From a virus (taxonomy: Duplodnaviria > Caudoviricetes), in IMG/VR virus record IMGVR_UViG_3300013121_000018, positions 32,001-96,000 of that record: 64,000 nt of DNA; one strand, given 5' to 3'. Below the pieces are notes generated by a model, which was given only the letters and a program-made list of their open reading frames with translations, made no database searches and was not told the DNA's origin. Numbering within the stretch: the stretch's first letter is position 1; each line of letters begins with the position of its first letter. A program made the position numbers and the translations under genes. Shown in pieces: positions 1,318 through 30,108 of the stretch.

Positions 1318-1872
1318 ATGATTACTAAGAATTCAACCAATCAGGAAATTCGTGATGCATTTAAAGATGTTGTAGCAACAGGTAAGGCATTTGTTTATGG
1401 TCTTTTTGAAACAGCTAACGCTGATTATATTCAACTTGGCATTGCACAAGAAGTTACCACTCCAGGTTCTGCCACTGCAGAACAACAACTGTTCTTAGGA
1501 TGGGGTGAGAATAAAAGTATTGTGCGTTGTTTGCAAAACGTTAAGAAAGAAGTTCTTGAGAACATCAAGAAATATTTCAACAGCGATTTGAATCCAGGTT
1601 CTATTCTGGATAAAGCAAATATTCAAATCACTGAAGCATTTACTCCAAACTCTTGGCCTGATGCTGATGGTACAATTGTGTATCAAAAAGCAAAAGTGTA
1701 TCCAGAATCTTCACAACATGCTGGTAAATTCATGGTAGACTCTGAAGGTCGCCGTGTATACCGCAATACATCTCTTGTTTTGGGTGAAGCAACACATACT
1801 TTTGTGAAAGATTGTGTGCCTGAAGCAGCACCAGCAAATGCAGTTTCTCTTGAAAGTCTTGCAACAGCTTAA
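1318..1872 (+). CDS. conserved crAss-like hypothetical protein
   Basis: 184 aa with A-rich leader; C-terminal GxxVYRNTxLVxGEAxHxF resembles a family seen in crAss-like phages (from memory). Confidence 0.7.
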   Translation: MITKNSTNQEIRDAFKDVVATGKAFVYGLFETANADYIQLGIAQEVTTPGSATAEQQLFLGWGENKSIVRCLQNVKKEVLENIKKYFNSDLNPGSILDKANIQITEAFTPNSWPDADGTIVYQKAKVYPESSQHAGKFMVDSEGRRVYRNTSLVLGEATHTFVKDCVPEAAPANAVSLESLATA

Positions 1873-1933
1873 GTAAACAACACCTCTCTCTAATTAAATT
1901 TTTTAACAAATCATTTTAAAAATCTATTTTTTT

Positions 1934-2326
1934 ATGAGCAAATTAACTTCTAAAGCAGTATTTCTTCTTTCAGCTCTTTTTTTGGCAACTGGTGACAACG
2001 CACCAGAATCAGATTTCTGTGTTCCCTCAAACGAGGGCGATTGGGAATCTGCTTACAAAGAACTTCAAGAAAATCGCATTCTTGATGAAAATAACAATCT
2101 TACCGGTTATGGTAAGGCTAGGGCACATGGGTGTCAATCGCAAGGCGTTAATTTGCAACGACTTGCTGAAAAGAATCCAAACATGGCTATTGCTATGTTA
2201 AGGGAATCTGTCAACGGTATTGAATATCATTACCAAAATGGTGTTGAATTCTCCGATAAGGCTTTTAAGCTTTTTGGTGAAACTTCAGCTAGACTTGGCC
2301 ATTTGGCTGCAACTACAGTATCGTAA
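1934..2326 (+). CDS. hypothetical phage protein
   Basis: 130-aa ORF followed by a hairpin. Confidence 0.7.
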   Translation: MSKLTSKAVFLLSALFLATGDNAPESDFCVPSNEGDWESAYKELQENRILDENNNLTGYGKARAHGCQSQGVNLQRLAEKNPNMAIAMLRESVNGIEYHYQNGVEFSDKAFKLFGETSARLGHLAATTVS

Positions 2327-2335
2327 TACAAAAAC

Positions 2336-2380
2336 AAATCCTCTAGTCCCGTAAGATTAGAGGATTTTAATATTTTTTTT
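2336..2380 (+). terminator. putative intrinsic terminator / hairpin
   Basis: aaatcctctagtc-ccgtaa-gattagaggattt stem followed by T-rich sequence. Confidence 0.6.
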
Positions 2381-2929
2381 ATGGACAAAGAGAAAAGAGA
2401 AGCCTATGTCCAATGGCTTACAAAGAAAGGAAAACCACAATTAGTTACTCCTTTAAAGTTTATTGGACTTAGAAAAAATAAACACGATCACGTCGTAACA
2501 TTTTACGATGCTGACGGGAGACCCTACAACGGGGAAGTATGGGATTGTCGTACACAGGATGGTAAAGTAAAACAATTTACTTTTCCTGTTGAGACAGCCT
2601 CTCAGGAAGAAGTAGGATGGAGTTTTAATTCTAATCCTATTGATGATAATAGTATTTACACTAATCAAGATGCTTGGCATTATGATGGTGAAAACTATAT
2701 TGTAATCCCTAATGAATGTAAATTAACAGAAAAAGAAGAAAAAGTAATGAGTTTTCTTCATAACTTTGTTAACAACACAGATGATGACGTTATGGGCACA
2801 TTGGCTCAATTAAAGTTAATGATGTTGACTACGCCGTCACAAAGGATATTAAAAGAGTACAAAGATTTTAGAACCAATCATGCCGAAAAGCATGATAAAC
2901 TAAACAATCTTATAGATGGAAGTATTTAA
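2381..2929 (+). CDS. hypothetical phage protein
   Basis: 182-aa ORF. Confidence 0.7.
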   Translation: MDKEKREAYVQWLTKKGKPQLVTPLKFIGLRKNKHDHVVTFYDADGRPYNGEVWDCRTQDGKVKQFTFPVETASQEEVGWSFNSNPIDDNSIYTNQDAWHYDGENYIVIPNECKLTEKEEKVMSFLHNFVNNTDDDVMGTLAQLKLMMLTTPSQRILKEYKDFRTNHAEKHDKLNNLIDGSI

Positions 2930-3110
2930 AAAGATTGGATTTTTTCTCCTTGCTGCAATTAGCGCATTTATATTGGCTTCAATAGCAATTGCTGCTAAAG
3001 CACTTGGAGGAATTGTTGGATTTATTTTTTCACACTTTGTTGATGGCTTCAAAGGACAAGCTGATGCCGTCAATGAATATTTTGAGTATTTAGACAGGAA
3101 AACCGATTAG
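2916..3110 (+). CDS. small membrane protein
   Basis: 64 aa with long hydrophobic N-terminal segment. Confidence 0.6.
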   Translation: MEVFKKIGFFLLAAISAFILASIAIAAKALGGIVGFIFSHFVDGFKGQADAVNEYFEYLDRKTD

Positions 3111-3117
3111 AGGTTTT

Positions 3118-3133
3118 GGCCCCGTAGCTCAGT
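3118..3133 (+). pseudogene. 5' remnant of a disrupted tRNA gene
   Basis: GGCCCCG-TAGCTCAGT is a classic tRNA 5' end; its acceptor half pairs with CGGGGTC at 3684-3690. Confidence 0.7.
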
Positions 3134-3491
3134 GTACTATTATGTGACGTATTCTATGACAGTTTGCACATAATAGTACACATTTATCCAATTCTTCTAA
3201 TATTTTATTCCAATTCATAATTCTTAATTTCGACCAATCATGATCTTTTAATTTAGGATTAAGATGATGAAATTCAAAAACAGCATAGTGCGAATTGTTT
3301 AATTCTAATAAACAATCATTACATTTACCACCTTTGTAAATAATAGCATCAATTTTACGTTTTATCCAACGTTGTTGACACCGTTTATTAAAACAGTTTT
3401 TACAGTAGCACATTGTATTTTGACTATGTGATTTTGAAGTATAAAACTCATTTAAAGGTTTAATAATTTTACAATCGGTACATATTTTCAT
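3129..3491 (-). CDS. HNH homing endonuclease with N-terminal Zn finger
   Basis: CxxC..CxxC N-terminus, GGKCxDC, FEFHH, LLCANCHRIRH HNH core; antisense to its neighbours. Confidence 0.85.
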   Translation of the reverse strand: MKICTDCKIIKPLNEFYTSKSHSQNTMCYCKNCFNKRCQQRWIKRKIDAIIYKGGKCNDCLLELNNSHYAVFEFHHLNPKLKDHDWSKLRIMNWNKILEELDKCVLLCANCHRIRHIIVH

Positions 3492-3524
3492 ATTATTTTA
3501 TTTTTTTTATTATTTGTAAATCAA

Positions 3525-3597
3525 GGCTTGGTCATTCTAACGGATAAGAAATCTGGCTTCTAACCAGAGAATAGGGGTTCGATTCCTCTCCAAGTCA
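3525..3597 (+). tRNA. tRNA-Arg(UCU)
   Basis: Acceptor ggcttgg/ccaagtc, anticodon arm tctgg-cttctaa-ccaga, T arm agggg-ttcgatt-cctct; slightly atypical D arm. Confidence 0.85.
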
Positions 3598-3605
3598 CAA
3601 AGATA
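3598..3605 (-). promoter_or_regulatory. putative Bacteroidota -7 promoter element for the HNH gene
   Basis: TATCTTTG on the - strand matches TAnnTTTG; the same 8-mer precedes the antisense GIY-YIG at 23578-23585. Confidence 0.5.
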
Positions 3606-3674
3606 ATATATAATATGCTTAGTAAATAAGTTTCTAAGCATATTATTAAATATTTAATAAATATTTAACAAAAA

Positions 3675-3693
3675 AACTCCTGTCGGGGTCACA
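3675..3693 (+). pseudogene. 3' remnant of the disrupted tRNA gene
   Basis: aact-cctgt-cggggtc-aca = end of T loop, 3' T stem, 3' acceptor stem and discriminator. Confidence 0.7.
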
Positions 3694-3705
3694 AATTAAG
3701 TTTTT

Positions 3706-3924
3706 ATGAATGTATTTAAAAAATCAGAAGTTCCTAAAGGAAAAAATTCTTTATATTCTGAAACTTATCAGGTTAACTTTTGGTTGACTGAAAATGGAAT
3801 AATTTCTAAACAACAAGAAATTTATCATACTGCTTCAAAAGGTAGACACAAGCAAGTTGAAGCTAAATGGAAAAAAGAATATAAAGATAAAGCAGTAAAA
3901 TTGATTTCTGTAATTTATGAATAA
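3706..3924 (+). CDS. hypothetical phage protein
   Basis: 72-aa ORF. Confidence 0.6.
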   Translation: MNVFKKSEVPKGKNSLYSETYQVNFWLTENGIISKQQEIYHTASKGRHKQVEAKWKKEYKDKAVKLISVIYE

Positions 3925-3930
3925 AATATT

Positions 3931-4170
3931 ATGGCAAAAGATAAAGAATTTGAGAAACGATACAAAGAAGAAGGAAACAGAAGAATGTCCATTAGAAAAG
4001 CAAAAAGAAATGAAAAATATTTTAAACTTACAAGAGAAGCCCAAGAATGTGGAAAACCTATTTGGGCAATAAAAGCAGGATATTGGCCTGATTCTAATAG
4101 TCCTACAGGATATTCACAAAAATGTGATTGGCAGGGTAATTGTCAATATCCCTGTAACGGAGATTGTTAA
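3931..4170 (+). CDS. hypothetical protein with Cys-rich C-terminus
   Basis: 79 aa ending CDWQGNCQYPCNGDC. Confidence 0.65.
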   Translation: MAKDKEFEKRYKEEGNRRMSIRKAKRNEKYFKLTREAQECGKPIWAIKAGYWPDSNSPTGYSQKCDWQGNCQYPCNGDC

Positions 4171-4175
4171 TACAT

Positions 4176-4233
4176 CGCAGGATAGCTTAGTGGTAGAGCT
4201 TTTAGCGGGTGTTCGATTCACTCTCCTGCAACA
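4176..4233 (+). ncRNA. tRNA-like RNA lacking the anticodon arm (or tRNA pseudogene)
   Basis: Acceptor cgcagga/tcctgca with C1-A72 mismatch, D arm gctt-agtggta-gagc, T arm gggtg-ttcgatt-cactc; only ~7 nt between D and T arms. Confidence 0.7.
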
Positions 4234-4249
4234 AATTAAAATTAAAATC

Positions 4250-4444
4250 ATGGAACTATTATCATTTGTAATTTGGTTATGTTTTTATCCTGTTTCTTGT
4301 GCAGTAGAAAAATATGTATTGGCAGAATTTTACAGAAAAAGAAACTGGAAATTTTTGTCCGAAACAAATAACTTTTTTTCTATAGTTTTTAATTTGTTTT
4401 TATATATTTTAATAGCACAATTTCTTTTCTTCAGGATTCCATAA
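4250..4444 (+). CDS. small membrane protein
   Basis: Two hydrophobic segments; start at MELLSF because the upstream extension overlaps the tRNA-like element. Confidence 0.55.
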   Translation: MELLSFVIWLCFYPVSCAVEKYVLAEFYRKRNWKFLSETNNFFSIVFNLFLYILIAQFLFFRIP

Positions 4445-4483
4445 CAGACTAAGAACAAACACCTAAACTTAAATCTTAAACTT

Positions 4484-4789
4484 ATGAAAAAATTATTATT
4501 ACTAGCATTTATTAGTTTGAGTGTTTGTTCTTATGCTCAAACCATTGGTCTTGAAATGGGAGCAAATCTTATTTCAGACAGAAAATTATTTCATGACAAT
4601 ACTCTTAACTGCCAACCACGGCCATTCACCTATGTTGGAGTGAATTATCAAATCAAAAGTATAACGACAAGACTGACTTATACTTTTGATTTACACATTA
4701 TTACTATTGGGTCTAGTATCCAATTATATAATGTGAATAGAAAAAGTAGAAGTTATGCTTTAATAAACAGAAACTATAACAAACATTAA
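4484..4789 (+). CDS. secreted / outer-membrane-like protein
   Basis: Sec signal MKKLLLLAFISLSVCSYA|Q; beta-strand-like alternating pattern. Confidence 0.65.
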   Translation: MKKLLLLAFISLSVCSYAQTIGLEMGANLISDRKLFHDNTLNCQPRPFTYVGVNYQIKSITTRLTYTFDLHIITIGSSIQLYNVNRKSRSYALINRNYNKH

Positions 4790-4810
4790 ACTATTAAAAT
4801 TAAAAAAATT

Positions 4811-5446
4811 ATGAGAAAATTGTTAATGTTTGTAACTTTTCTTACATTTAGCGTTATAATGACTGCACAATGTAAGATTGAAACTGGAAATCTGATTGTC
4901 GAATCATTAGGTAATCAAGAGTATAGCCTATATTTAAGCCAGAAACCAATTAACACCTGTTTCCCGGTTTCTGACAGCAGTTCATTATGGGTGGGTATAC
5001 TTTGTTCATCTACTGGTAATTATGCGTCAGAATGGCTGAAATGGTCTGATACGCTAAAATACACTTTTAGTGGTCATATTACACTGGTCGCTAAGATTAA
5101 GTGGTATAAGCAAGGGAATGCTTATGCTGAAACACATATCTTTGTACCAGATGTATTTGAAACTGGACATAACTGCTATACTAAAATTGGTACATATTCT
5201 GTTCCAAATATTATACCACCAGTAATCACACCACCTGTGTTTGTTCCAGAGTTTAATATTAACAATGAAATTATTACCACTAATGTTGGTGGCACGTTAA
5301 TAATTATGTCATATCCTAACTTTGATAATATCATTGTAAAGGAATATGACAATCAATTCACTTTTAATCTATTACCCGGATGGTGGTATTGTTATCTAAT
5401 ATTAGATGATGGGACAACATTGGGTAATACAATCATTCAAAACTAA
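4811..5446 (+). CDS. secreted protein with Pro-rich linker and possible T9SS-type C-terminal domain
   Basis: Signal peptide ...IMTA|Q, PNIIPPVITPP linker, C-terminal LLPGWWY...DG...TIIQN. Confidence 0.65.
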   Translation: MRKLLMFVTFLTFSVIMTAQCKIETGNLIVESLGNQEYSLYLSQKPINTCFPVSDSSSLWVGILCSSTGNYASEWLKWSDTLKYTFSGHITLVAKIKWYKQGNAYAETHIFVPDVFETGHNCYTKIGTYSVPNIIPPVITPPVFVPEFNINNEIITTNVGGTLIIMSYPNFDNIIVKEYDNQFTFNLLPGWWYCYLILDDGTTLGNTIIQN

Positions 5447-7882: not shown

Positions 7883-8091
7883 ATTTAGTATTTTGTGAAA
7901 ATAATTGTTCAATATCTGATTTAGAAGAAGGTAAATGTAAATGTTACAATGAGGCTAAAGAAGAACTTCAAGAAGAAAACTCTGGTAAATATTATTGTGG
8001 CATTTGTAGTAAACCTTTTCTTAAATCAGAATTAACACCAATAACAAATGGATTAGCCTGTTGTGATAATTGTTTAAAAATTAAAATATGA
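7879..8091 (+). CDS. small Cys-rich (Zn-binding) protein
   Basis: CxxC..CCxxC motifs. Confidence 0.6.
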   Translation: MNLVFCENNCSISDLEEGKCKCYNEAKEELQEENSGKYYCGICSKPFLKSELTPITNGLACCDNCLKIKI

Positions 8092-8354
8092 AAAACATAG
8101 ATAAAACCTTAATTTATTTATCCTCAAGTATGTTCTTTATAGGAATTTGGGCAGGATTAACTTTTTCTACTATTGAATTTAAAAAGTATTCTGATAAAGA
8201 ACTACAATTAATCCATAAGGGATTTGTTTTAGGGTGGTATTATCACGAATCATCTATATTTGGGAGTAAAGTTCCATCTACTTCATTATATGAAGCATGG
8301 AAATCTCAAAAAGCTTCTTTAGAGGCAGAAAAAAAAACAATTAAAGATGAATAA
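8088..8354 (+). CDS. small membrane protein
   Basis: N-terminal hydrophobic helix; ATGA overlap. Confidence 0.55.
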   Translation: MKNIDKTLIYLSSSMFFIGIWAGLTFSTIEFKKYSDKELQLIHKGFVLGWYYHESSIFGSKVPSTSLYEAWKSQKASLEAEKKTIKDE

Positions 8355-8575
8355 TGAAAGACTATATAATCATCAATGGTCAAAAAATCAATGTTACTAG
8401 AATGTGGAATCGTCTTCAACAATTAGAGCATAAAATTAAGGTTTTAGAAAATGAACGAAATATGATGAATAACGAAAAAGAAATTAAATGGCCTTTTCAT
8501 AAGGCTGCACGGTTTATCATAGCTATTACTGTTATATTATGGTTTTTTATAATCATGTTGCTTATTGGTTTGTAA
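8354..8575 (+). CDS. coiled-coil protein with C-terminal TM helix
   Basis: 73 aa; TAATG overlap. Confidence 0.55.
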   Translation: MKDYIIINGQKINVTRMWNRLQQLEHKIKVLENERNMMNNEKEIKWPFHKAARFIIAITVILWFFIIMLLIGL

Positions 8576-8585
8576 ATTTGTCAAG

Positions 8586-8954
8586 ATGAAAAGAATTAAT
8601 ATTGAAACTGCTAAATTGACAAAAGAAATTGGGTATGATTTGGGTGCTTGTAATAAATACTATTATGATGGAATTATCAAATCATCCAAAATTCTATTAC
8701 AAGATATTAATAATTGTTATCCAGCACCATATCAAGCAGAATTACAAGAATGGTTAAGAAATAAACATGGTATAATAGTTTTAGTAGAATATTGTAAATT
8801 TTATGAAGTTCCTTGGTCAGCATGTATTCAAAAATTACAAGATGATTTTATTGAAGATTATCATAATTTTACAAATTACGAAGAAGCTCTAGAACAAGGA
8901 TTACAAGAAGCATTGAAATTAATTAAAAATGAACAATATGATGAAAATCCTTAG
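8586..8954 (+). CDS. hypothetical protein, paralog of 32123..32488
   Basis: AKLxKEIGYD..PAPxQ..W..YEEALExG pattern common in Bacteroidota phages. Confidence 0.7.
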   Translation: MKRINIETAKLTKEIGYDLGACNKYYYDGIIKSSKILLQDINNCYPAPYQAELQEWLRNKHGIIVLVEYCKFYEVPWSACIQKLQDDFIEDYHNFTNYEEALEQGLQEALKLIKNEQYDENP

Positions 8955-9066
8955 ATGGGTTCCTGTAATTGGAATATTTGTACCCATTAAGTATGCTGAT
9001 ATATATGATACTGTGTACCAGTATGTAATGGGTGCAATATTCTTGTGGTGGTTAAATGTGATTTGA
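8929..9066 (+). CDS. small membrane protein (45 aa, not in ORF track)
   Basis: MNNMMKILRWVPVIGIFV...FLWWLNVI*; its TGA overlaps the next ATG at 9066. Confidence 0.45.
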   Translation: MNNMMKILRWVPVIGIFVPIKYADIYDTVYQYVMGAIFLWWLNVI

Positions 9067-9098
9067 TGGAAAAAGAAGTATGGTTTTATGAAATTTAA
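9066..9098 (+). pseudogene. remnant 5' end of an ancestral polB gene
   Basis: Mini-ORF MEKEVWFYEI* aligns with the PolB N-terminus KKIYVYDLE; the GIY-YIG ATG lies inside its TAT-GA codons. Confidence 0.5.
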
Positions 9099-9789
9099 AG
9101 ACTTAAAAAGACACGCTCTCTTAGTAAATGGAATTTATAAAATAACTAATATTTTAAACAATAAATGTTATATTGGAAGCAGTGCTTCTAAGTATTATTT
9201 ATATAATAGATTATTAAATCATTTTAATAATCTAAGAAAAAATAAACATGTTAATTCTCATTTACAAAATGCATGGAATAAGTATGGAGAAGAGAATTTT
9301 ATTATTAGTATTTTAGAAACATGTTCTCCTGATAAATGTATTGAAAGAGAACAATATTATATTAATATTTTTTCTCCTGATTATAATATATGCCCTATTG
9401 CTAATAGTTCTTATGGAAGAACCTGCGATGAAAACACTAAAAGAAAAATATCTAATAAAAATAAAGAATGGTATGCTACTGAAGAGGGTATATTATTTAA
9501 ACAAAAATTATCGAAACTAAGAAAAAATTGTTCAAACTTAAAACACTCTGACGAATTTAAAAAAAGATTATCACTTTTATATAAAAATAGAATTGTTTCT
9601 GAAGAAACAAAAAATAAAATGAGAAAACCAAAAATATCATTAAGAAAATCTATTTTAGATTTAAATGATAATAACATCTATTCAAGTGAAGAATTATCTG
9701 AAAAATATAAAGTAAGTGTTAGTTATATAAGGTCTATTGCAAGACAAGAAAGAACTTCCTCTAAAATTAGAATAACATATGTACAATAA
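9088..9789 (+). CDS. free-standing GIY-YIG homing endonuclease with NUMOD3-like repeats
   Basis: GIYKITN..CYIGS, RL..H...L..NKH.N.HLQNAWNKYG, EREQYYI; HSDEFKKRLS and SEETKNKM motifs. Confidence 0.9.
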   Translation: MKFKDLKRHALLVNGIYKITNILNNKCYIGSSASKYYLYNRLLNHFNNLRKNKHVNSHLQNAWNKYGEENFIISILETCSPDKCIEREQYYINIFSPDYNICPIANSSYGRTCDENTKRKISNKNKEWYATEEGILFKQKLSKLRKNCSNLKHSDEFKKRLSLLYKNRIVSEETKNKMRKPKISLRKSILDLNDNNIYSSEELSEKYKVSVSYIRSIARQERTSSKIRITYVQ

Positions 9790-11683
9790 AAAAATATATG
9801 TTTATGACCTTGAATGTTACCCCCAGTTATTTTCTGCAACATTTTTACACAAGGATTCCGATGAAACAAGAGTGTTTTATATATTTAAAGAAGAAGATCA
9901 AAGAAAAGATTTATTTAATTTTCTTAATAATGAAGTAGAAGGTTTAATATCCTTTAATGGATTAAATTATGATTCTCAATTAATTGAATTTTTATATAGA
10001 AATCCTAACGCAACAACTTATGAATTAAGAAATTATTCAAATCAAATAGTAAATTCTGAAAATAGAAGAAATGATGTTCCTGAATATAAGTTACGAATTC
10101 CTCATTTAGACTTATACAAAATACATCATTTTGATAATAAAAATAGAAGAACCGGTTTAAAATGGATAGAATTTATGCTTGATTTGGAAAATATTGAAGA
10201 TTTACCTTCAGACGGAATCGGTGATAATTGGTTAGAACAGGTTCTTCATTACAATTTAAATGATGTTATAGCTACTAAAAAATTATTTGAAAATTCAAAG
10301 CAATTAATTAAGCTTCGTCAAGAGCTTTCTGAAATATACGGTATTAATTTAATAAATGCAAGTAATTCTAAAATAGGATCTGAATTGGCACTTCATTTAT
10401 ACTGTAATGCTACTGGAAAATATAAAAGAGATGTGAGATCAATGAGAACAGTACGAAATGAAGTAAATGTTAAAGATATTATATTTCCTTATATTAAATT
10501 TAAATCTAATGAATTTAATAATGTTCTTAACAAATTTAAAGATACTGTAGTAATAAATACTAAAGGAGATATTGAATTTTCAACAAAATATAAAGGTTTT
10601 CAATTTGATTACGGTGCGGGAGGTATACACGGTAGTTTAAATAATACAAAAATTGAAAGTGACGATTATTTTATAATAATCGACTGCGACGTAAGTAGCT
10701 TATATCCATCCATAGCTATAGTAAATAAACTTTTTCCAGAACATCTTGGAGAGGAGTTTTATAGTGTATATGAACGAGATATAGTTGCTATAAGACTTGC
10801 TGAAAAAGCAAAAAAAGAGAACGGTAATAAAGCTATTGTTGATGGTTTTAAAGAGGCTGCTAATAGCGTTTATGGTAAAAGTAATGATCAATATAGTTGG
10901 CTTCAGGACATGAAGTACACAATGGCAACTACAATTAACGGTCAGTTAATGTTATCTATGCTAGCGGAAATGTTAATGGAAATTGAAAATCTCCAAATGA
11001 TTCAAATTAATACTGACGGCCTTACTGTTAAATTACCAAGAAAATATGAAGACCAATATTATAACATATGTAAAGAATGGGAAAATATTACAAAACTTCA
11101 ACTTGAATATGTAGAATATTCTAAAATGGTTTTATTTGACGTAAATAATTATTTGGCAGTTTATAAAAATTTAAATAAAAAACCAAAATGTAAAGGCAGG
11201 TGTGAATTTGAGAACATTCCTTTACATAAGAACAAATCTCATTCAATAATAGCAAAATCGTTTCATGACTATTTTGTTCATAATATACCTGTTGAAGATA
11301 CAATTTTAAATCATAGAAATATTTTTGATTTCTGCGCTGGTGTAAAAGCTAAGAAATCAGAAAAACAGGGCAATTCTCATTATGAATTACATTCTATTGA
11401 AGGTACTGAAATAAAGAAAGAAAAACTTTCTAAAACTGTAAGGTATTATGTATCTAAAAAGGGCAAGTGGTTGTTTAAATGCTATGAAGACGGCTCTCAG
11501 GAACACGTAGAAGCTCCTACACAATTTGGTAGAGCATCTAAAGACTGGAAGGTAACTTATTTCAATAAGTCTTGGAAATGTGATAATTTTGAAGATTATG
11601 GTATTGATTATACATATTATATATACAATGCCAAGAAACAAATATCACAAATTCAAGATAAACAACAATTAAGCTTATTTTAA
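9779..11683 (+). CDS. polB: family B DNA polymerase (crAss-type) with 3'-5' exonuclease
   Basis: ExoI YDLE, ExoII FNGLNYD, ExoIII YNLND; polymerase motifs DVSSLYPS, KxxxNSVYGK, NTDG; C-terminal QLSLF. Confidence 0.95.
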   Translation: MYNKKIYVYDLECYPQLFSATFLHKDSDETRVFYIFKEEDQRKDLFNFLNNEVEGLISFNGLNYDSQLIEFLYRNPNATTYELRNYSNQIVNSENRRNDVPEYKLRIPHLDLYKIHHFDNKNRRTGLKWIEFMLDLENIEDLPSDGIGDNWLEQVLHYNLNDVIATKKLFENSKQLIKLRQELSEIYGINLINASNSKIGSELALHLYCNATGKYKRDVRSMRTVRNEVNVKDIIFPYIKFKSNEFNNVLNKFKDTVVINTKGDIEFSTKYKGFQFDYGAGGIHGSLNNTKIESDDYFIIIDCDVSSLYPSIAIVNKLFPEHLGEEFYSVYERDIVAIRLAEKAKKENGNKAIVDGFKEAANSVYGKSNDQYSWLQDMKYTMATTINGQLMLSMLAEMLMEIENLQMIQINTDGLTVKLPRKYEDQYYNICKEWENITKLQLEYVEYSKMVLFDVNNYLAVYKNLNKKPKCKGRCEFENIPLHKNKSHSIIAKSFHDYFVHNIPVEDTILNHRNIFDFCAGVKAKKSEKQGNSHYELHSIEGTEIKKEKLSKTVRYYVSKKGKWLFKCYEDGSQEHVEAPTQFGRASKDWKVTYFNKSWKCDNFEDYGIDYTYYIYNAKKQISQIQDKQQLSLF

Positions 11684-11684
11684 T

Positions 11685-11849
11685 ATGGATTGCTACAAAA
11701 TAATTTATGATGAAGAAACTTTGATTAATTTTATTAATTGGCTTCCTGATTTAAAAGACAATGAGATATTTTATTTAAGTTTATTTTGTAGAAAAAAATA
11801 TGCACCAACACATGTACCAAAGAAGTTTAACTTTAATTTTTCAATTTAG
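11685..11849 (+). CDS. 54-aa ORF, possibly truncated remnant of a longer phage gene
   Basis: MDCYKIIYDEETL..FINWLPDL..NEIFYLSLFCRKKY then low-complexity tail. Confidence 0.4.
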   Translation: MDCYKIIYDEETLINFINWLPDLKDNEIFYLSLFCRKKYAPTHVPKKFNFNFSI

Positions 11850-11853
11850 AATT

Positions 11854-12231
11854 ATGAAGACTTTTGTTCAAGTAATTGGTAAGAAGACAGCAACAACTAA
11901 AGCACAAGAAGTTGCATTGGGTTACATCATGGATTTGCAAACAGAAATTGCTGCAATTGAAGCTGCAAAGCCGTCTCTGGTAAAACAACAAGAGATGTAT
12001 GTTAGGAAAATGAAAATTGAAGCTGAACGTTGTTTTGAAGAATCTCTTGGTAATACAGAGAGGCCGAATTTGGATAAAATAATTGAAACTTATGCTACTT
12101 TGAAAGCAATTGAAGTTTCTGATAATCCATACACACAAAAAATTAAAGACGCTGAAGAACGGCTCGCAATATTGAAGGAAATACTTGCACTGTTTCCTGA
12201 AAATGTTGATAGTATCGTTGTAAGCGAATAA
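11854..12231 (+). CDS. coiled-coil hypothetical protein
   Basis: Start MKTFVQV at 11854; helical Ala/Glu/Lys-rich. Confidence 0.7.
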   Translation: MKTFVQVIGKKTATTKAQEVALGYIMDLQTEIAAIEAAKPSLVKQQEMYVRKMKIEAERCFEESLGNTERPNLDKIIETYATLKAIEVSDNPYTQKIKDAEERLAILKEILALFPENVDSIVVSE

Positions 12232-22230: not shown

Positions 22231-23919
22231 GTAAATCTGTTAAGAATATTAACGATGCGGATTTGATTATTTTTACTGGTGGAGAAGATATTTCACCAGA
22301 ATTATATAATCAAAAAGCAAATACACATACAAGAGGTGTTAATATCAAACGTGATAGGCATGAAGTTGCTATATTCAACCTCTATAAAGATATTCCTAAA
22401 CTTGGTGTCTGTAGAGGACACCAACTAATTTCTGTGTTAGAGGGTGCTTCTTTGATTCAGCACGTTGATGGTCATCATACTAACCATAATATGAAAACGT
22501 TTGATGATCATACTATTGGAGTTACATCATGTCATCATCAAATGGTTATCTTCGACAAAGACATGGAAGAAGGTAAAGACTACTATCACTTAGGATGGTC
22601 TTCACCAGCAAAAGCTACTATGTATGTTGGAGAAAAAGGTATAGATATATATAGGGACGGTGTTAAACTTGCTAACAGATACTTTGAAGAATCCGAAATG
22701 GCTTTTTTTCCAAAATCAAATAGCTTGACTGTACAATTTCACCCTAAACATTTGGGGCTTGCATAAGTGATTGTGCATGAAACATCGCTTAAATTCGGTG
22801 AACTCCTTCAATATTTTGGAGAATACCGAGCCAAGCTATTCTTAGGTTAATAGAGAATAGAAGGTGTAACGACTACAGAGGTGAGCCTAACAATAATCCT
22901 CTGCACGAAAAAGCGATTACTTACTTTTATCAAAAACATCTTTATACTGCCACTTATATCCACCACAGGTAACATCTCTACCATTACAAACGTGTCTTAT
23001 ATTTTGTCTCCAAACATTATTTTTAATAGCAGCGTTTTGTAATGAGTAATATTCTTCAACAATATTTTCTTCAAAATCTAATTTATATACTGGTCGGCCA
23101 AGTTTTCTTTTTAAAGATTCTGGTCTATTTTTTCCTAATAAGCCTTGTCTTATTTTTTCACAAGTTTCTTTTCTTACTTTTCTTTTAAAGGTAATAGGAT
23201 GCTTCATGTTGGTGGAAATATTAAAACCTTTTTTTACTGAATTATATTTATTTATGTAATAAAGTTCTCGTTCCCATAAAAATTCATATGAGTTTTCATT
23301 AGGAATAAGTTCTAAAATATCAAATATAAAATTATTGACTCCGTATTTATTATACGCTCGTTGCAATTTTATATTATAATGCGCATTTTTTTCAAGTTTT
23401 AATAAATGGTTTTTCCATCTTTTATGAAAATTAGATTTGTTTCCTTTTGTGGAACCTATATAAGCTTTGTTATTTTTAACACAAAGTATTATATAAATAC
23501 CTGTAGATTTAATGTTTACCACAGATTCTGCAGTAGTAATGATGTTTGTATAAATTTTTACCATACTTGTTTTTTTACAAAGATAACTCTGTTTAAAAGT
23601 ACAAAATAGTTTTATGTAAAAAAATTAACAATTTTTGGTAATAACTAAGTTATAATGATAAAACAATTCTATATGAATGTAAATTCAATCATATGGAATG
23701 TAAGTAAATGATATAGTCTGAACTTACAGGATGATAAACTGTAAGAAGTATAGGATAAAGAGCCTATACGATAACATAATGGAATGGATGGACAATATGC
23801 TTGGACAAAAATATGTTAAAGAATTAGTTTTCAAGTTAGTTTCTAATAAACTTGAAGAACACATAATTCAATCAAAATTGAACATTGAATATGCACAAGA
23901 GCTCGATGCCCGTTTTTAA
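22167..23919 (+). CDS. class I glutamine amidotransferase / peptidase C26, two exons (22167-22745, 23782-23919; 238 aa spliced)
   Basis: TGGEDISP, GVCRGHQ nucleophile, SCHHQ; splicing restores QFHP|E. Confidence 0.88.
22917..23564 (-). CDS. intron-encoded GIY-YIG homing endonuclease (NUMOD1-like C-terminus)
   Basis: TGIYIIL..AYIGST, RWKNH, LQRAYNKYG, RELYYI, C-terminal GGYKWQY. Confidence 0.9.
   Translation of the reverse strand: MVKIYTNIITTAESVVNIKSTGIYIILCVKNNKAYIGSTKGNKSNFHKRWKNHLLKLEKNAHYNIKLQRAYNKYGVNNFIFDILELIPNENSYEFLWERELYYINKYNSVKKGFNISTNMKHPITFKRKVRKETCEKIRQGLLGKNRPESLKRKLGRPVYKLDFEENIVEEYYSLQNAAIKNNVWRQNIRHVCNGRDVTCGGYKWQYKDVFDKSK
23578..23585 (-). promoter_or_regulatory. putative Bacteroidota -7 promoter for the intron endonuclease
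   Basis: TATCTTTG (TAnnTTTG) 13 nt upstream of the ATG, with a TTTG further upstream. Confidence 0.6.
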
Positions 23920-27924: not shown

Positions 27925-29520
27925 ATGAGTACAAAAAAAAGTAAAAATAAGTTTGCTGCTCCTACATTAGCTGCTGTAAGTGAACCCAGTGTTGTAACAT
28001 ACACTGGGGATACTTATCCCAAAAGTGCCTGTAGGCGTATTGATAATGACTATTATCTTATCGGTGATAAAAATATCAAAGATTCTGGTCAAGTATTTCT
28101 TATCAATGATGTCTGGTATCGTCTGTCAACTAATAAGATTACATGGGACTATCGTAAAGAAGAATATGTAATTATTAGTAGTAGCACTTTGATTTACGGC
28201 TTGGTGGATGTCACAAAAGACAAAGAACCGGTTATGGGATATTTTACACCAGATGACCTGAAAGATATTATGGTCTATGATTACGGTGCGTCTGAATTTA
28301 TGGCTATGGATGAAAATATGGCATTAAAACTCCCAAATGCGGTACGATGTGTTTCAGATGGTGCTATAGTATTTTCCAAACTTAAAAACGTAAATTCTCT
28401 TAGTAGATTTGAAAAACATGCTAAAAGAAATTATCCCTCGTTTGATTTGAATAATTATGGATTTGCAAATAATCCTGGCGTTTCTCTTGTAAAAGAAAGG
28501 AATGCTAAATATATTAAAAGTAAAGAATTTACAGTAAATCCTACTATTGCAGAAATTGCAAAATTTCTTAAAGGCTATACATTTGGAGCAGAATTTGAAA
28601 CTGCATGTGGTACATTACCAACAAAAGAACTTCTTAAAACAGGATTAATTCCTGTTAAAGATGGTAGTATTTCTGGACATGAGTATGTTACTCTGGTTCA
28701 TCAAGGTGAACTAGGATTACAGCTTTTGATGGATGCAGCAAATGCATTAAGTACATGGACAACTCCAGATCAGTATTGTTCCTTACATATCCATATCGGA
28801 AATGTTCCTAGAACAAAAGAGTTTATCATCGCTATGTATATGTTGTCATACATGTTACAGCATGAATTACATGAAATCGTAGCTCCATACAAAAAAGATG
28901 TCGGTTATCTTGCATCTAAGAATCATGGCGCTAAAGACCACTGTAAATACTTGCAATCACTGAATCTATTTGGAAATCGCATTTATGATGTTCCTAAAGA
29001 ACAAAAACAAAGAGAAATCGATGTTGTCTTCAAAAATGTATTCGCATGGTTGAATGATGGACAGGGAGAAAATGTTAGAAATAATTTCGGAACAGGAGTA
29101 CATGTTAGACAAGACCGTCCTAAATGGGAATGGCAGTCTAGGTATTACTGGATGAATTTTTGCAATTTAGTATTTTCACCACATCATACAGTTGAGAACA
29201 GGTTGCATAGTGGAACAGTGAATCCAACTAAGACGTTGAATTGGTTATTGATTACTGTGGCAATGATAGATTTTGCCATTAATAATCAAGAAGAGATTAT
29301 TCGTGGCAAAACGAAGTATGCACTTGAGGATATTGTAAACAGATACTATAGAGTATCTGATAGTGGCAACATTATTGCCGATTATTTATTGGCATATATT
29401 CGTGACAGGAAAAACAATTTCTTTAATTTGTCTATGATGGGAGATATGTATGGCAATGAATTTGTAAATAAAAATACTTCCTTTGAACCTTGGGAAGTTT
29501 TGATTAAAAGACTCAAGTAA
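27925..29520 (+). CDS. putative amidoligase (Amidoligase_2, glutamine-synthetase-like fold)
   Basis: TFGAEFET, KDGSI, HEYVT, CSLHIHIG, RYYWMNF, TVENRLHSGT. Confidence 0.85.
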   Translation: MSTKKSKNKFAAPTLAAVSEPSVVTYTGDTYPKSACRRIDNDYYLIGDKNIKDSGQVFLINDVWYRLSTNKITWDYRKEEYVIISSSTLIYGLVDVTKDKEPVMGYFTPDDLKDIMVYDYGASEFMAMDENMALKLPNAVRCVSDGAIVFSKLKNVNSLSRFEKHAKRNYPSFDLNNYGFANNPGVSLVKERNAKYIKSKEFTVNPTIAEIAKFLKGYTFGAEFETACGTLPTKELLKTGLIPVKDGSISGHEYVTLVHQGELGLQLLMDAANALSTWTTPDQYCSLHIHIGNVPRTKEFIIAMYMLSYMLQHELHEIVAPYKKDVGYLASKNHGAKDHCKYLQSLNLFGNRIYDVPKEQKQREIDVVFKNVFAWLNDGQGENVRNNFGTGVHVRQDRPKWEWQSRYYWMNFCNLVFSPHHTVENRLHSGTVNPTKTLNWLLITVAMIDFAINNQEEIIRGKTKYALEDIVNRYYRVSDSGNIIADYLLAYIRDRKNNFFNLSMMGDMYGNEFVNKNTSFEPWEVLIKRLK

Positions 29521-29526
29521 AAGAGA

Positions 29527-30108
29527 ATGAACGGAAAAAGAAACAGAACTAAGGGGCATGATCTCGAAAGAGATTGTGCTTCCCTTTTTAGAAATTTGGG
29601 ATTTAGTTTTGCTAAAACTACTAGAGCAGAGTCTAAAACTTTAGATGATGCCGGAGTTGATATAGCGAACATACCCTTTCTGGTACAGTGTAAAGCAGGA
29701 TACGATGACAGATACCCAAGATTTCCTGAAATTTATAAAGGAATCAGGGAAAACATTAAAAAAGCATATCCTAAAGACAGTCCTTTACAGGAACTTCCTG
29801 TAATTCTGATACATAAGCCAAATAGAAATGCCCCATATTGGAGCATTGACCAAGCTTTTGCTTTGGAATTATTTAAGAAAGCAACTGTTAATGCAGATAT
29901 TATTGCAACTGCAATTGATGTTTTGACAAAAGCAAAACAAGAAATTCTTGCTTTAGAAGAAGCTTTACAACAATCTAATGAGAAAGTAGAAGAATACACA
30001 ATTTATGATGATGTAGAGGATGATGATAATATAATTCATAGTACACCAATTTTTAATGAAACTTATGATCAGATTGTGGCATTACTAGACACACTAAAAA
30101 TAATATAA
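29527..30108 (+). CDS. PD-(D/E)xK Holliday junction resolvase-like nuclease
   Basis: NRTKGHDLER, D.GVDI, LVQCK. Confidence 0.75.
   Translation: MNGKRNRTKGHDLERDCASLFRNLGFSFAKTTRAESKTLDDAGVDIANIPFLVQCKAGYDDRYPRFPEIYKGIRENIKKAYPKDSPLQELPVILIHKPNRNAPYWSIDQAFALELFKKATVNADIIATAIDVLTKAKQEILALEEALQQSNEKVEEYTIYDDVEDDDNIIHSTPIFNETYDQIVALLDTLKII

Follow-up and report, generated by a model that had tools for sequence, protein, structure and literature searches.

A free-standing GIY-YIG endonuclease gene appears to have replaced the start of a phage family-B DNA polymerase gene

Hybrid genes are created in fungal mitochondria by mobile endonuclease open reading frames (mORFs), which have been described in atp6 of Allomyces macrogynus and in atp6, atp9, cox2 and nad3 of Glomus (PMC3630166). 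Each mORF moves together with a duplicate terminus of an essential gene; once imported, that terminus is the working one, while the native end is left as an orphaned or untranslated copy beside the endonuclease (PMC3630166). T4-like phages carry free-standing seg and mob endonucleases (SegB, SegF, SegG, MobE) that support intronless homing, with co-conversion of flanking DNA (PMC2988022, PMC2330249). One-sided homing with illegitimate junctions at microhomology has been shown experimentally in T4 (Parker, Belisle and Belfort 1999, as described in PMC2988022), and endonuclease insertions are known to split phage genes, as with mobE in nrdA of Aeh1 and a seg-like gene in gene 43 of Aeromonas phage 25 (PMC2988022). 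Here we describe a locus of a Caudoviricetes virus (IMG/VR record IMGVR_UViG_3300013121_000018) in which a predicted GIY-YIG homing endonuclease gene stands immediately before, and overlaps, the gene of a family-B DNA polymerase (polB). The stretch analyzed, hereafter the window, is 64,000 nt long and corresponds to bases 32001-96000 of the 107.6-kb record, which is 97% complete and has a genome GC content of 26%. We propose, with a probability of roughly 0.7, that an endonuclease cassette carrying its own polB start replaced the original start of this polB by one-sided homing, leaving a 26-nt stump of the old start behind.

The stump forms most of a mini open reading frame (ORF), MEKEVWFYEI* (9066..9098, plus strand; ATG GAA AAA GAA GTA TGG TTT TAT GAA ATT TAA). 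Its 26 nt, 9066..9091, comprise eight codons, MEKEVWFY, and the GA of what would be the Asp codon of the polymerase ExoI motif. The free-standing endonuclease gene, intact and encoding 233 amino acids (9088..9789, plus strand), has its ATG at 9088-9090, inside the T-ATG-A of the mini-ORF; the left junction, TATGA at 9087..9091, is thus common to the Tyr-Asp codons of the stump and the endonuclease start codon. At the other end, the polymerase gene (9779..11683, plus strand; intact, 634 amino acids, starting MYNKKIYVYDLE) has its ATG within the last endonuclease codons (ACA TAT GTA CAA TAA). Its working 5′ end, 9779..9807, extends up to a second, directly repeated copy of TATGA at 9803-9807, which provides the Tyr-Asp codons of the ExoI motif YDLE. 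Deletion of 716 nt between the two copies of TATGA would restore an intact polB starting MEKEVWFYDLECY. The first-pass annotation had described a TGATG-coupled mini-ORF before the endonuclease and an endonuclease ATG lying within TAT-GA, and on direct reading all of its coordinates and sequences were correct.

The resemblance of the mini-ORF to a polB start was scored with a position-specific profile made from the N termini of 77 distinct relatives (positions -7 to -1 before the ExoI Asp, the window protein being excluded). EKEVWFY scored 12.0 bits and ranked 3rd of 127,960 six-frame window positions (p=2.3e-5 per position); on the same profile, the true polB start ranked 1st of 127,960. The parallel that had been drawn at first pass between KEVWFY and the working start at ExoI is, on this ranking, not a chance one. 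It had also been suggested that related polymerases might begin with an EKEVWFYD-like sequence, and many endonuclease-free relatives do begin in such a way (MEKRVWIFDLE, MEKKVWIFDLE, MEKRVWVFDLE, MEKKIWIYDLE, MEKKLWVYDLE). The position of the stump is that of a polB start as well. In the endonuclease-free L180 and L181, the homologue of window 8565-8954 is followed directly by polB, with an ATGA overlap, and an ATGA stop/start overlap of polB with the upstream gene is likewise found in the endonuclease-free L004 and L171. Because the profile score coincides with the place where endonuclease-free polB genes would be expected to start, we read the stump as a polB start; the comparison confirms a resemblance beyond chance and marks 9066-9091 as the likely vestige of the original one.

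One could instead see in the mini-ORF a chance or purely regulatory reading frame, a leader peptide or coupling device for the endonuclease without any polB ancestry. It has, after all, 10 codons only, in a genome of low GC content, and its overlap with the endonuclease ATG would permit reinitiation. However, a score of this rarity was obtained precisely where a polB start should lie, independent stumps are found in two other genomes (a stronger one in L007, another in L006), and a regulatory role would be compatible with descent from a stump rather than an alternative to it. We consider a mini-ORF unrelated to polB very unlikely.

The arrangement recurs in L006 and L007, the two of the three full-length endonuclease relatives for which DNA could be read. 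Each of these has its endonuclease gene immediately before polB, with the stop/ATG overlap seen in the window; the L007 endonuclease is a full-length relative, 53% identical, in the same position as the window gene. In all three loci the polB ATG is made from the endonuclease's penultimate Tyr codon, TAT, and the G that follows it (window 9776-9781; L006:5698-5703; L007:1001-1006). This Tyr is invariant in the four polB-associated endonucleases, a single codon here being constrained by two genes. The polB genes of these three loci fall into three separate polB clades, and conservation of the overlap between the endonuclease 3′ end and the polB ATG across those clades suggests that endonuclease and polB start move as a unit. 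The nearest members of each of the three clades lack the endonuclease (L003 and L184 in one, L171 in another, L172 and L180 in the third). Upstream of polB, the endonuclease is thus polymorphic for presence and absence, being found in the window, L006 and L007 and missing from L001-L005, L171, L172, L180, L181, L183 and L184; in at least 10 endonuclease-free relatives, polB starts directly at the upstream gene.

L006 and L007 have stumps of their own, which precede the endonuclease ATG by ~90-100 nt; each overlaps the stop codon of the ORF before it. That of L007, ATG AAT AAA AGA ATA TGG ATA TAG, reads MNKRIWI* and scores 17.0, compared to 17.2 for the true start; 0 of 128,000 null positions were as good. 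The L006 stump, MDKKV*, is shorter (p=2e-5 with the Met counted). The L006 and L007 cassettes show DNA homology that begins ~60 nt before the endonuclease ATG and continues into polB. Their stumps, however, are nonhomologous and of different length, and the genes upstream of them are unrelated. Homologous cassettes preceded by unrelated stumps and unrelated upstream genes imply that the stumps derive from the recipients and that the insertions were independent events.

The two cassettes also share a leader (L006:4940-5000; L007:243-303), absent from the window cassette, with TAcaTTTG and TAtcTTTG, respectively, ~25-30 nt before the endonuclease ATG. These motifs resemble the Bacteroidota -7 promoter box. 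In the window, the box TAnnTTTG occurs 116 times, against 110 expected, and is not enriched; the plus strand from 8581 to 11319 contains no match. We therefore regard the boxes of L006 and L007 as hints at the level of a motif only.

If cassettes bring a new start with them, the 5′ end of polB should differ in ancestry from the rest of the gene, and mosaicism was indeed part of the first-pass proposal. It is present in L007. We compared the L007 polB with those of L006 (endonuclease-bearing, from another clade) and L171 (endonuclease-free, its nearest clade-mate) in a DNA triplet test (MaxChi), which placed a breakpoint at nt ~179 (chi2=52.6, permutation p=0.0002). To its left (nt 1-178), 27 of 34 informative sites favor L006, including a run of 18, whereas to its right 179 of 223 favor L171 and 44 favor L006. 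Four-taxon sites gave a similar picture, with the clade grouping holding at 3 of 16 informative sites in nt 1-180 and at 105 of 129 afterwards. In the protein, the clade-B signature VFVIDNELDD.E.MFEFL is replaced by VFIISNTKDNRKELFHFL, which is L006-like. These site patterns show the first ~178 nt of the L007 polB to be of foreign origin with respect to its clade. A clade-diagnostic-residue test of the L007 protein had too few sites, and a candidate mosaic junction at residue 165 of the L006 polB was rejected, both halves having the same nearest clade.

A mirror image of this arrangement exists at the other end of the gene. In L001, polB occupies 2211-4106 and another GIY-YIG ORF, of 259 amino acids, follows at 4109-4888, 2 nt past the polB stop. 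The last 18 residues of this ORF, HAKKQITDIINKEQLKLF, are a polB C terminus, identical (100%) to that of P0104 and matching that of P0005 at 17 of 18 positions. The L001 polymerase itself is 98-100% identical to P0005 over residues 1-600, but matches it at only 17 of the last 31 residues. L183, the contig that encodes P0005, aligns with L001 until 42 nt before the L183 polB stop, and the last 51 nt of the L183 polB (3548-3598) recur at L001 4838-4888, with 49 of 51 nt (96%) identical, beyond an insert of ~775 nt. Comparison of the filled site in L001 with the empty site in L183 shows a cassette composed of a new 3′ terminus for polB together with an endonuclease gene, the native end having been left behind. 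The analogy to fungal atp6, offered at first pass, proves apt in this case. P0005 and P0104 are ~40% identical over residues 1-450 and ~94% identical over residues 451-632, a contrast that implies that large 3′ tracts of polB (~180 codons) have been exchanged between distant clades.

The suggestion that the endonuclease brought its own polB start gains support from the conserved overlap and from three loci with differing stumps. As no close relative turned up, we propose import of the working start in the window on the analogy of L007 and L001.

Several observations weigh against our proposal and deserve to be set out together. Compared with the available relatives, the nearest of which is 77% identical, the window polB shows no 5′ breakpoint, so that the mosaicism anticipated at first pass is seen in L007 and was not detected here; in its first 200 nt, 29 of 38 informative sites are consistent with the 176 of 255 found upstream of its only breakpoint, at nt ~1500. 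Even for L007, the signal comes from the DNA triplet test, the mismatch of the protein with the clade-B consensus giving p=0.2. The exact empty-site allele was not found, since neither the degenerate pattern MEKxVWFYD nor a 24-nt junction pattern had a match in IMG/VR; relatives with precisely the start that the first-pass annotation had sought were thus not found in that collection. The working start, MYNKKIYVYDLECY, is of the kind usual in the polB clade to which the window gene belongs (P0002 begins MNKKIYIYDLECY). The DNA of the stump matches other polB starts at 12-16 of 20 positions, compared to 15 of 20 for its own working start; similarity of the stump to particular polB starts, at 12-16 of 20 for all of them, proved uninformative and was set aside as a clue to origin. 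The working polB copy would have to escape cutting, and cleavage and its specificity are themselves predictions. Finally, a sediment metagenome (run X3) contains a 151-nt contig in which 41 of 42 positions agree with 9066-9107; the sequence on both sides is unrelated, and the match begins exactly at the stump ATG at 9066.

Some of these points would be expected if the endonuclease alone had inserted illegitimately and ~26 nt of the polB start had been duplicated in situ, in the manner of a target site, the working start then being native and the stump a decayed copy. A clade-typical working start, a window polB without a visible 5′ breakpoint and a stump that at 15 of 20 positions matches the working start no worse than any other pair does would all fit, and the L006 stump, ATGGATAAAAAAGTTT, equals the L006 working start except for a 6-nt indel. 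Since the window stump is no closer to other polB starts than to its own working start, such a duplication could have taken place at this locus. Against it stand the overlap of endonuclease 3′ end and polB ATG, conserved in three polB clades, and the demonstrably foreign working 5′ end of L007. Moreover, the differences in the stump are substitutions found within the family (TGG Trp for TAT Tyr, a two-base change) and the stump matches the starts of other clades, unlike the product of random decay. We judge a duplication in situ to be unlikely.

The X3 contig bears on another explanation, in which the stump is itself part of the mobile cassette, the fossil of an earlier host's polB start that says nothing of the original polB of this genome. 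If the contig is real, the stump could travel with the cassette, given the unrelated sequence immediately before 9066; the contig may come either from a relative with another upstream context or from a chance match of AT-rich sequence. The match is short, of low coverage and AT-rich, with a rough chance expectation of 0.003-0.3. In addition, the stumps of L006 and L007 are not homologous although their cassettes are, each overlapping the stop of a different upstream gene, and the window stump is coupled through TGATG to an upstream ORF, downstream of the gene that neighbors polB in L180. A stump carried from host to host thus seems quite improbable. Four metagenome runs (X1-X4, from soil, sediment and freshwater samples) searched with 8000-12000 yielded 150-300-nt contigs of low coverage only, some at 99-100% identity. 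The endonuclease/polB junction is bridged by one contig (9619-9870), and none from these runs joins across the endonuclease gene.

We return to replacement of the polB start by a cassette, for which we propose the following series of events. A free-standing endonuclease gene would arrive as a cassette that carries a polB 5′ end physically attached at its 3′ end. During co-infection, the enzyme would make its cut in a polB free of the endonuclease, close to the ExoI Tyr-Asp codons; measured from the Asp codon, the ends of the three stumps fall within ~10 nt of one another. On the downstream side of the break, homologous recombination within polB would copy in the donor polB start. The upstream end would find no homologous partner, as these phages differ in the genes that precede polB, and would instead be joined illegitimately at a microhomology. 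For the window, this microhomology would be ATGA, which is common to the recipient's TAT GA(Y) and the ATG A.. with which the endonuclease starts. The window cassette would then begin at the endonuclease ATG, whereas those of L006 and L007 would include a leader of ~60-95 nt. The first eight polB codons of the recipient would remain as the stump.

Each ORF boundary in this region is an overlap, so that four plus-strand ORFs form an unbroken chain of overlapping starts and stops. The first is a 45-aa hydrophobic ORF (8929..9066, plus strand) for which Pfam and phrog searches found no family match; its TGA stop at 9064-9066 overlaps the mini-ORF ATG (9066-9068) as TGATG. The stump reading frame in turn stops 8 nt past the endonuclease ATG. 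Given this coupling to the upstream ORF and the place where the stump frame ends, the stump probably now serves as a translational relay, leading from upstream ORF to stump, from stump to endonuclease, and from endonuclease to polB. Before the 45-aa ORF lies a gene at 8565..8954 (plus strand) that is the conserved left neighbor of polB; it matches phrog_12005, a family of unknown function (E=7e-16). Elsewhere in the window, ARAGORN finds a tRNA-Arg(TCT) at 3525-3598.

The 233-aa protein is predicted to be an intact GIY-YIG homing endonuclease similar to I-TevI. It matches Pfam GIY-YIG (PF01541) above the cutoff, with E=1.1e-7, and phrog_314, homing endonuclease, with E=2e-26; a NUMOD3 match (E=0.0035) falls under the Pfam cutoff. 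GIY at 15-17, YIG at 28-30, R41, E88 and N100 are invariant or nearly so across 65 homologues. In an AlphaFold model (predicted local distance difference test score, 94), the first ~95 residues superimpose on the I-TevI catalytic domain (1LN0/1MK0) with template modeling (TM) scores of 0.83-0.85, a root mean square deviation of 1.4-1.8 Å and 37-38% identity; the modeled tail bears a weak resemblance to the I-TevI DNA-binding domain (1I3J; E=0.02, probability 0.97, low TM score). This modeled two-domain fold would fit an enzyme that binds a site in conserved polB sequence and cuts at a distance from it.

Full-length relatives of the endonuclease are rare, with only three among 5.8 billion proteins, at 52-55% identity (the closest, P0122, at 55%); the remaining matches involve the catalytic half alone or do not exceed 37% identity. 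Conservation of the C-terminal half is confined to the four polB-associated members. A scan of IMG/VR and genome contigs with this half revealed no further full-length relatives, and whole-protein alignment scans returned generic GIY-YIG genes only. Because the endonuclease ORF overlaps its neighbors at both ends, there is no room for a ribozyme, and we regard the gene as free-standing rather than carried in an intron or intein. A group I intron was considered and rejected, in that no ribozyme was found by Rfam at 8000-12000 with E<=1. Two more GIY-YIG genes exist in the same genome, one in the window (23067-23504, minus strand) and one just before it (G000 29337-29696, minus strand); they are 36% and 48% identical to the endonuclease over the catalytic domain.

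The 634-aa protein is, by its sequence, assigned to the family-B DNA polymerases. Its translation contains an ExoI motif (YDLE), motif A (DVSSLYPS), motif B (KEAANSVYG) and motif C (NTDG), and it matches phrog_1252, "DNA polymerase" (E=7e-144), and the PolB-like exonuclease family PF13482 (E=2.7e-5). Annotated phage polymerases are ~36% identical to it, and no relative was found in the PDB at the sequence level. We identified 119 relatives of this polymerase at 50-77% identity; the nearest, at 77%, shares no common flanking genes.

Two observations on the rest of the polymerase gene stand apart from its 5′ end. From nt ~1500 of the window polB to its end (11280-11683), the special similarity to its nearest relative, L003, is lost over the last ~400 nt (MaxChi p=0.0005 for L003 versus L004, L172 and L180), and a 3′ recombination tract may therefore exist in either the window or the L003 polB. 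The window has no endonuclease gene downstream of polB. The second concerns other members of the same polB family, which are interrupted in the middle of the gene, once or twice, by GIY-YIG genes (L129:409-4328; L086:1715-4590; L128, L131 and L132:~1738-4829; L119:3816-6151). This polB family is a hot spot for GIY-YIG elements, the interruptions being split genes, introns or inteins.

More speculatively, one can envision endonuclease-driven end-swapping as a general process that works at both ends of the essential polB and shuffles it between distant clades, allows invasion of genomes with homology on one side only and, at the 5′ end, makes a selfish gene hard to delete. We put this idea forward tentatively, as something that may well not hold in its general form. 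If it does, polB ends (of up to ~180 codons, as with P0005 and P0104) would be moved by cassettes that carry a replacement terminus; the endonuclease, containing the polB start codon and having the old start as a relay, could then not be deleted without silencing the polymerase. The findings offer natural, sequence-level evidence that phage homing endonucleases can spread into genomes that are homologous on only one side of the cut, apparently by carrying the missing end of the target gene, with a recognizable stump marking the point of insertion. With them, gene-end replacement reaches beyond fungal mitochondria to phages, and to a 5′ gene end as well; they would also account for the mosaic termini of a gene essential to replication. 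Short orphaned pieces of gene starts or ends beside endonuclease genes may be useful as footprints of homing sites in metagenomic phage genomes, and, as a caution for annotation, mini-ORFs in such places may be gene fossils.

Much of what is seen here has precedents, namely free-standing GIY-YIG genes beside their targets, split phage polymerase genes and the replacement of gene ends in fungi. New with respect to the literature that we searched, in which we came across no description of such an arrangement, either for phages or for crAss-like phages, are the phage version itself, the 5′-end version with a new start codon inside the endonuclease, and the occurrence of such replacement at both ends of one gene family. 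With I-TevI, the window endonuclease has in common the N-terminal GIY-YIG catalytic domain, and its extended C-terminal region is weakly like the I-TevI DNA-binding domain; it differs in not being encoded in an intron and in its putative target.

As with the seg and mob genes, a GIY-YIG gene lies between genes, outside any intron, and its inferred target is in a neighboring essential gene of endonuclease-free relatives. The classical cases are homologous on two sides and without a duplicated gene end, whereas the window has what would be an illegitimate left junction, with a stump. One-sided homing in T4, in the account given in PMC2988022, resembles the present proposal in relying on homology on one side and on a junction at microhomology after resection on the other, as we propose for TATGA; that was an engineered laboratory system, and here the process is read from natural genomes. 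The split phage genes, too, are cases of a homing endonuclease gene in an essential replication gene, including a family-B polymerase, but those insertions leave two polypeptides, whereas the window polB stays whole because the cassette would supply the missing end.

The fungal mORFs share with these loci a duplicated gene terminus flanking the endonuclease, with one copy working and one vestigial (9066-9091 and 9779-9807 in the window, and likewise in L006 and L007). L001 reproduces the fungal pattern exactly, at the polB 3′ end, with a foreign working end and a native vestigial end (17 of 31 residues and 49 of 51 nt, respectively, matching L183). The window differs in that the 5′ end is concerned, so that a start codon and its translational coupling are replaced, in that the host is a phage, and in the shortness of the stump, at 26 nt; its endonuclease overlaps the start of the gene rather than being fused to it in frame.

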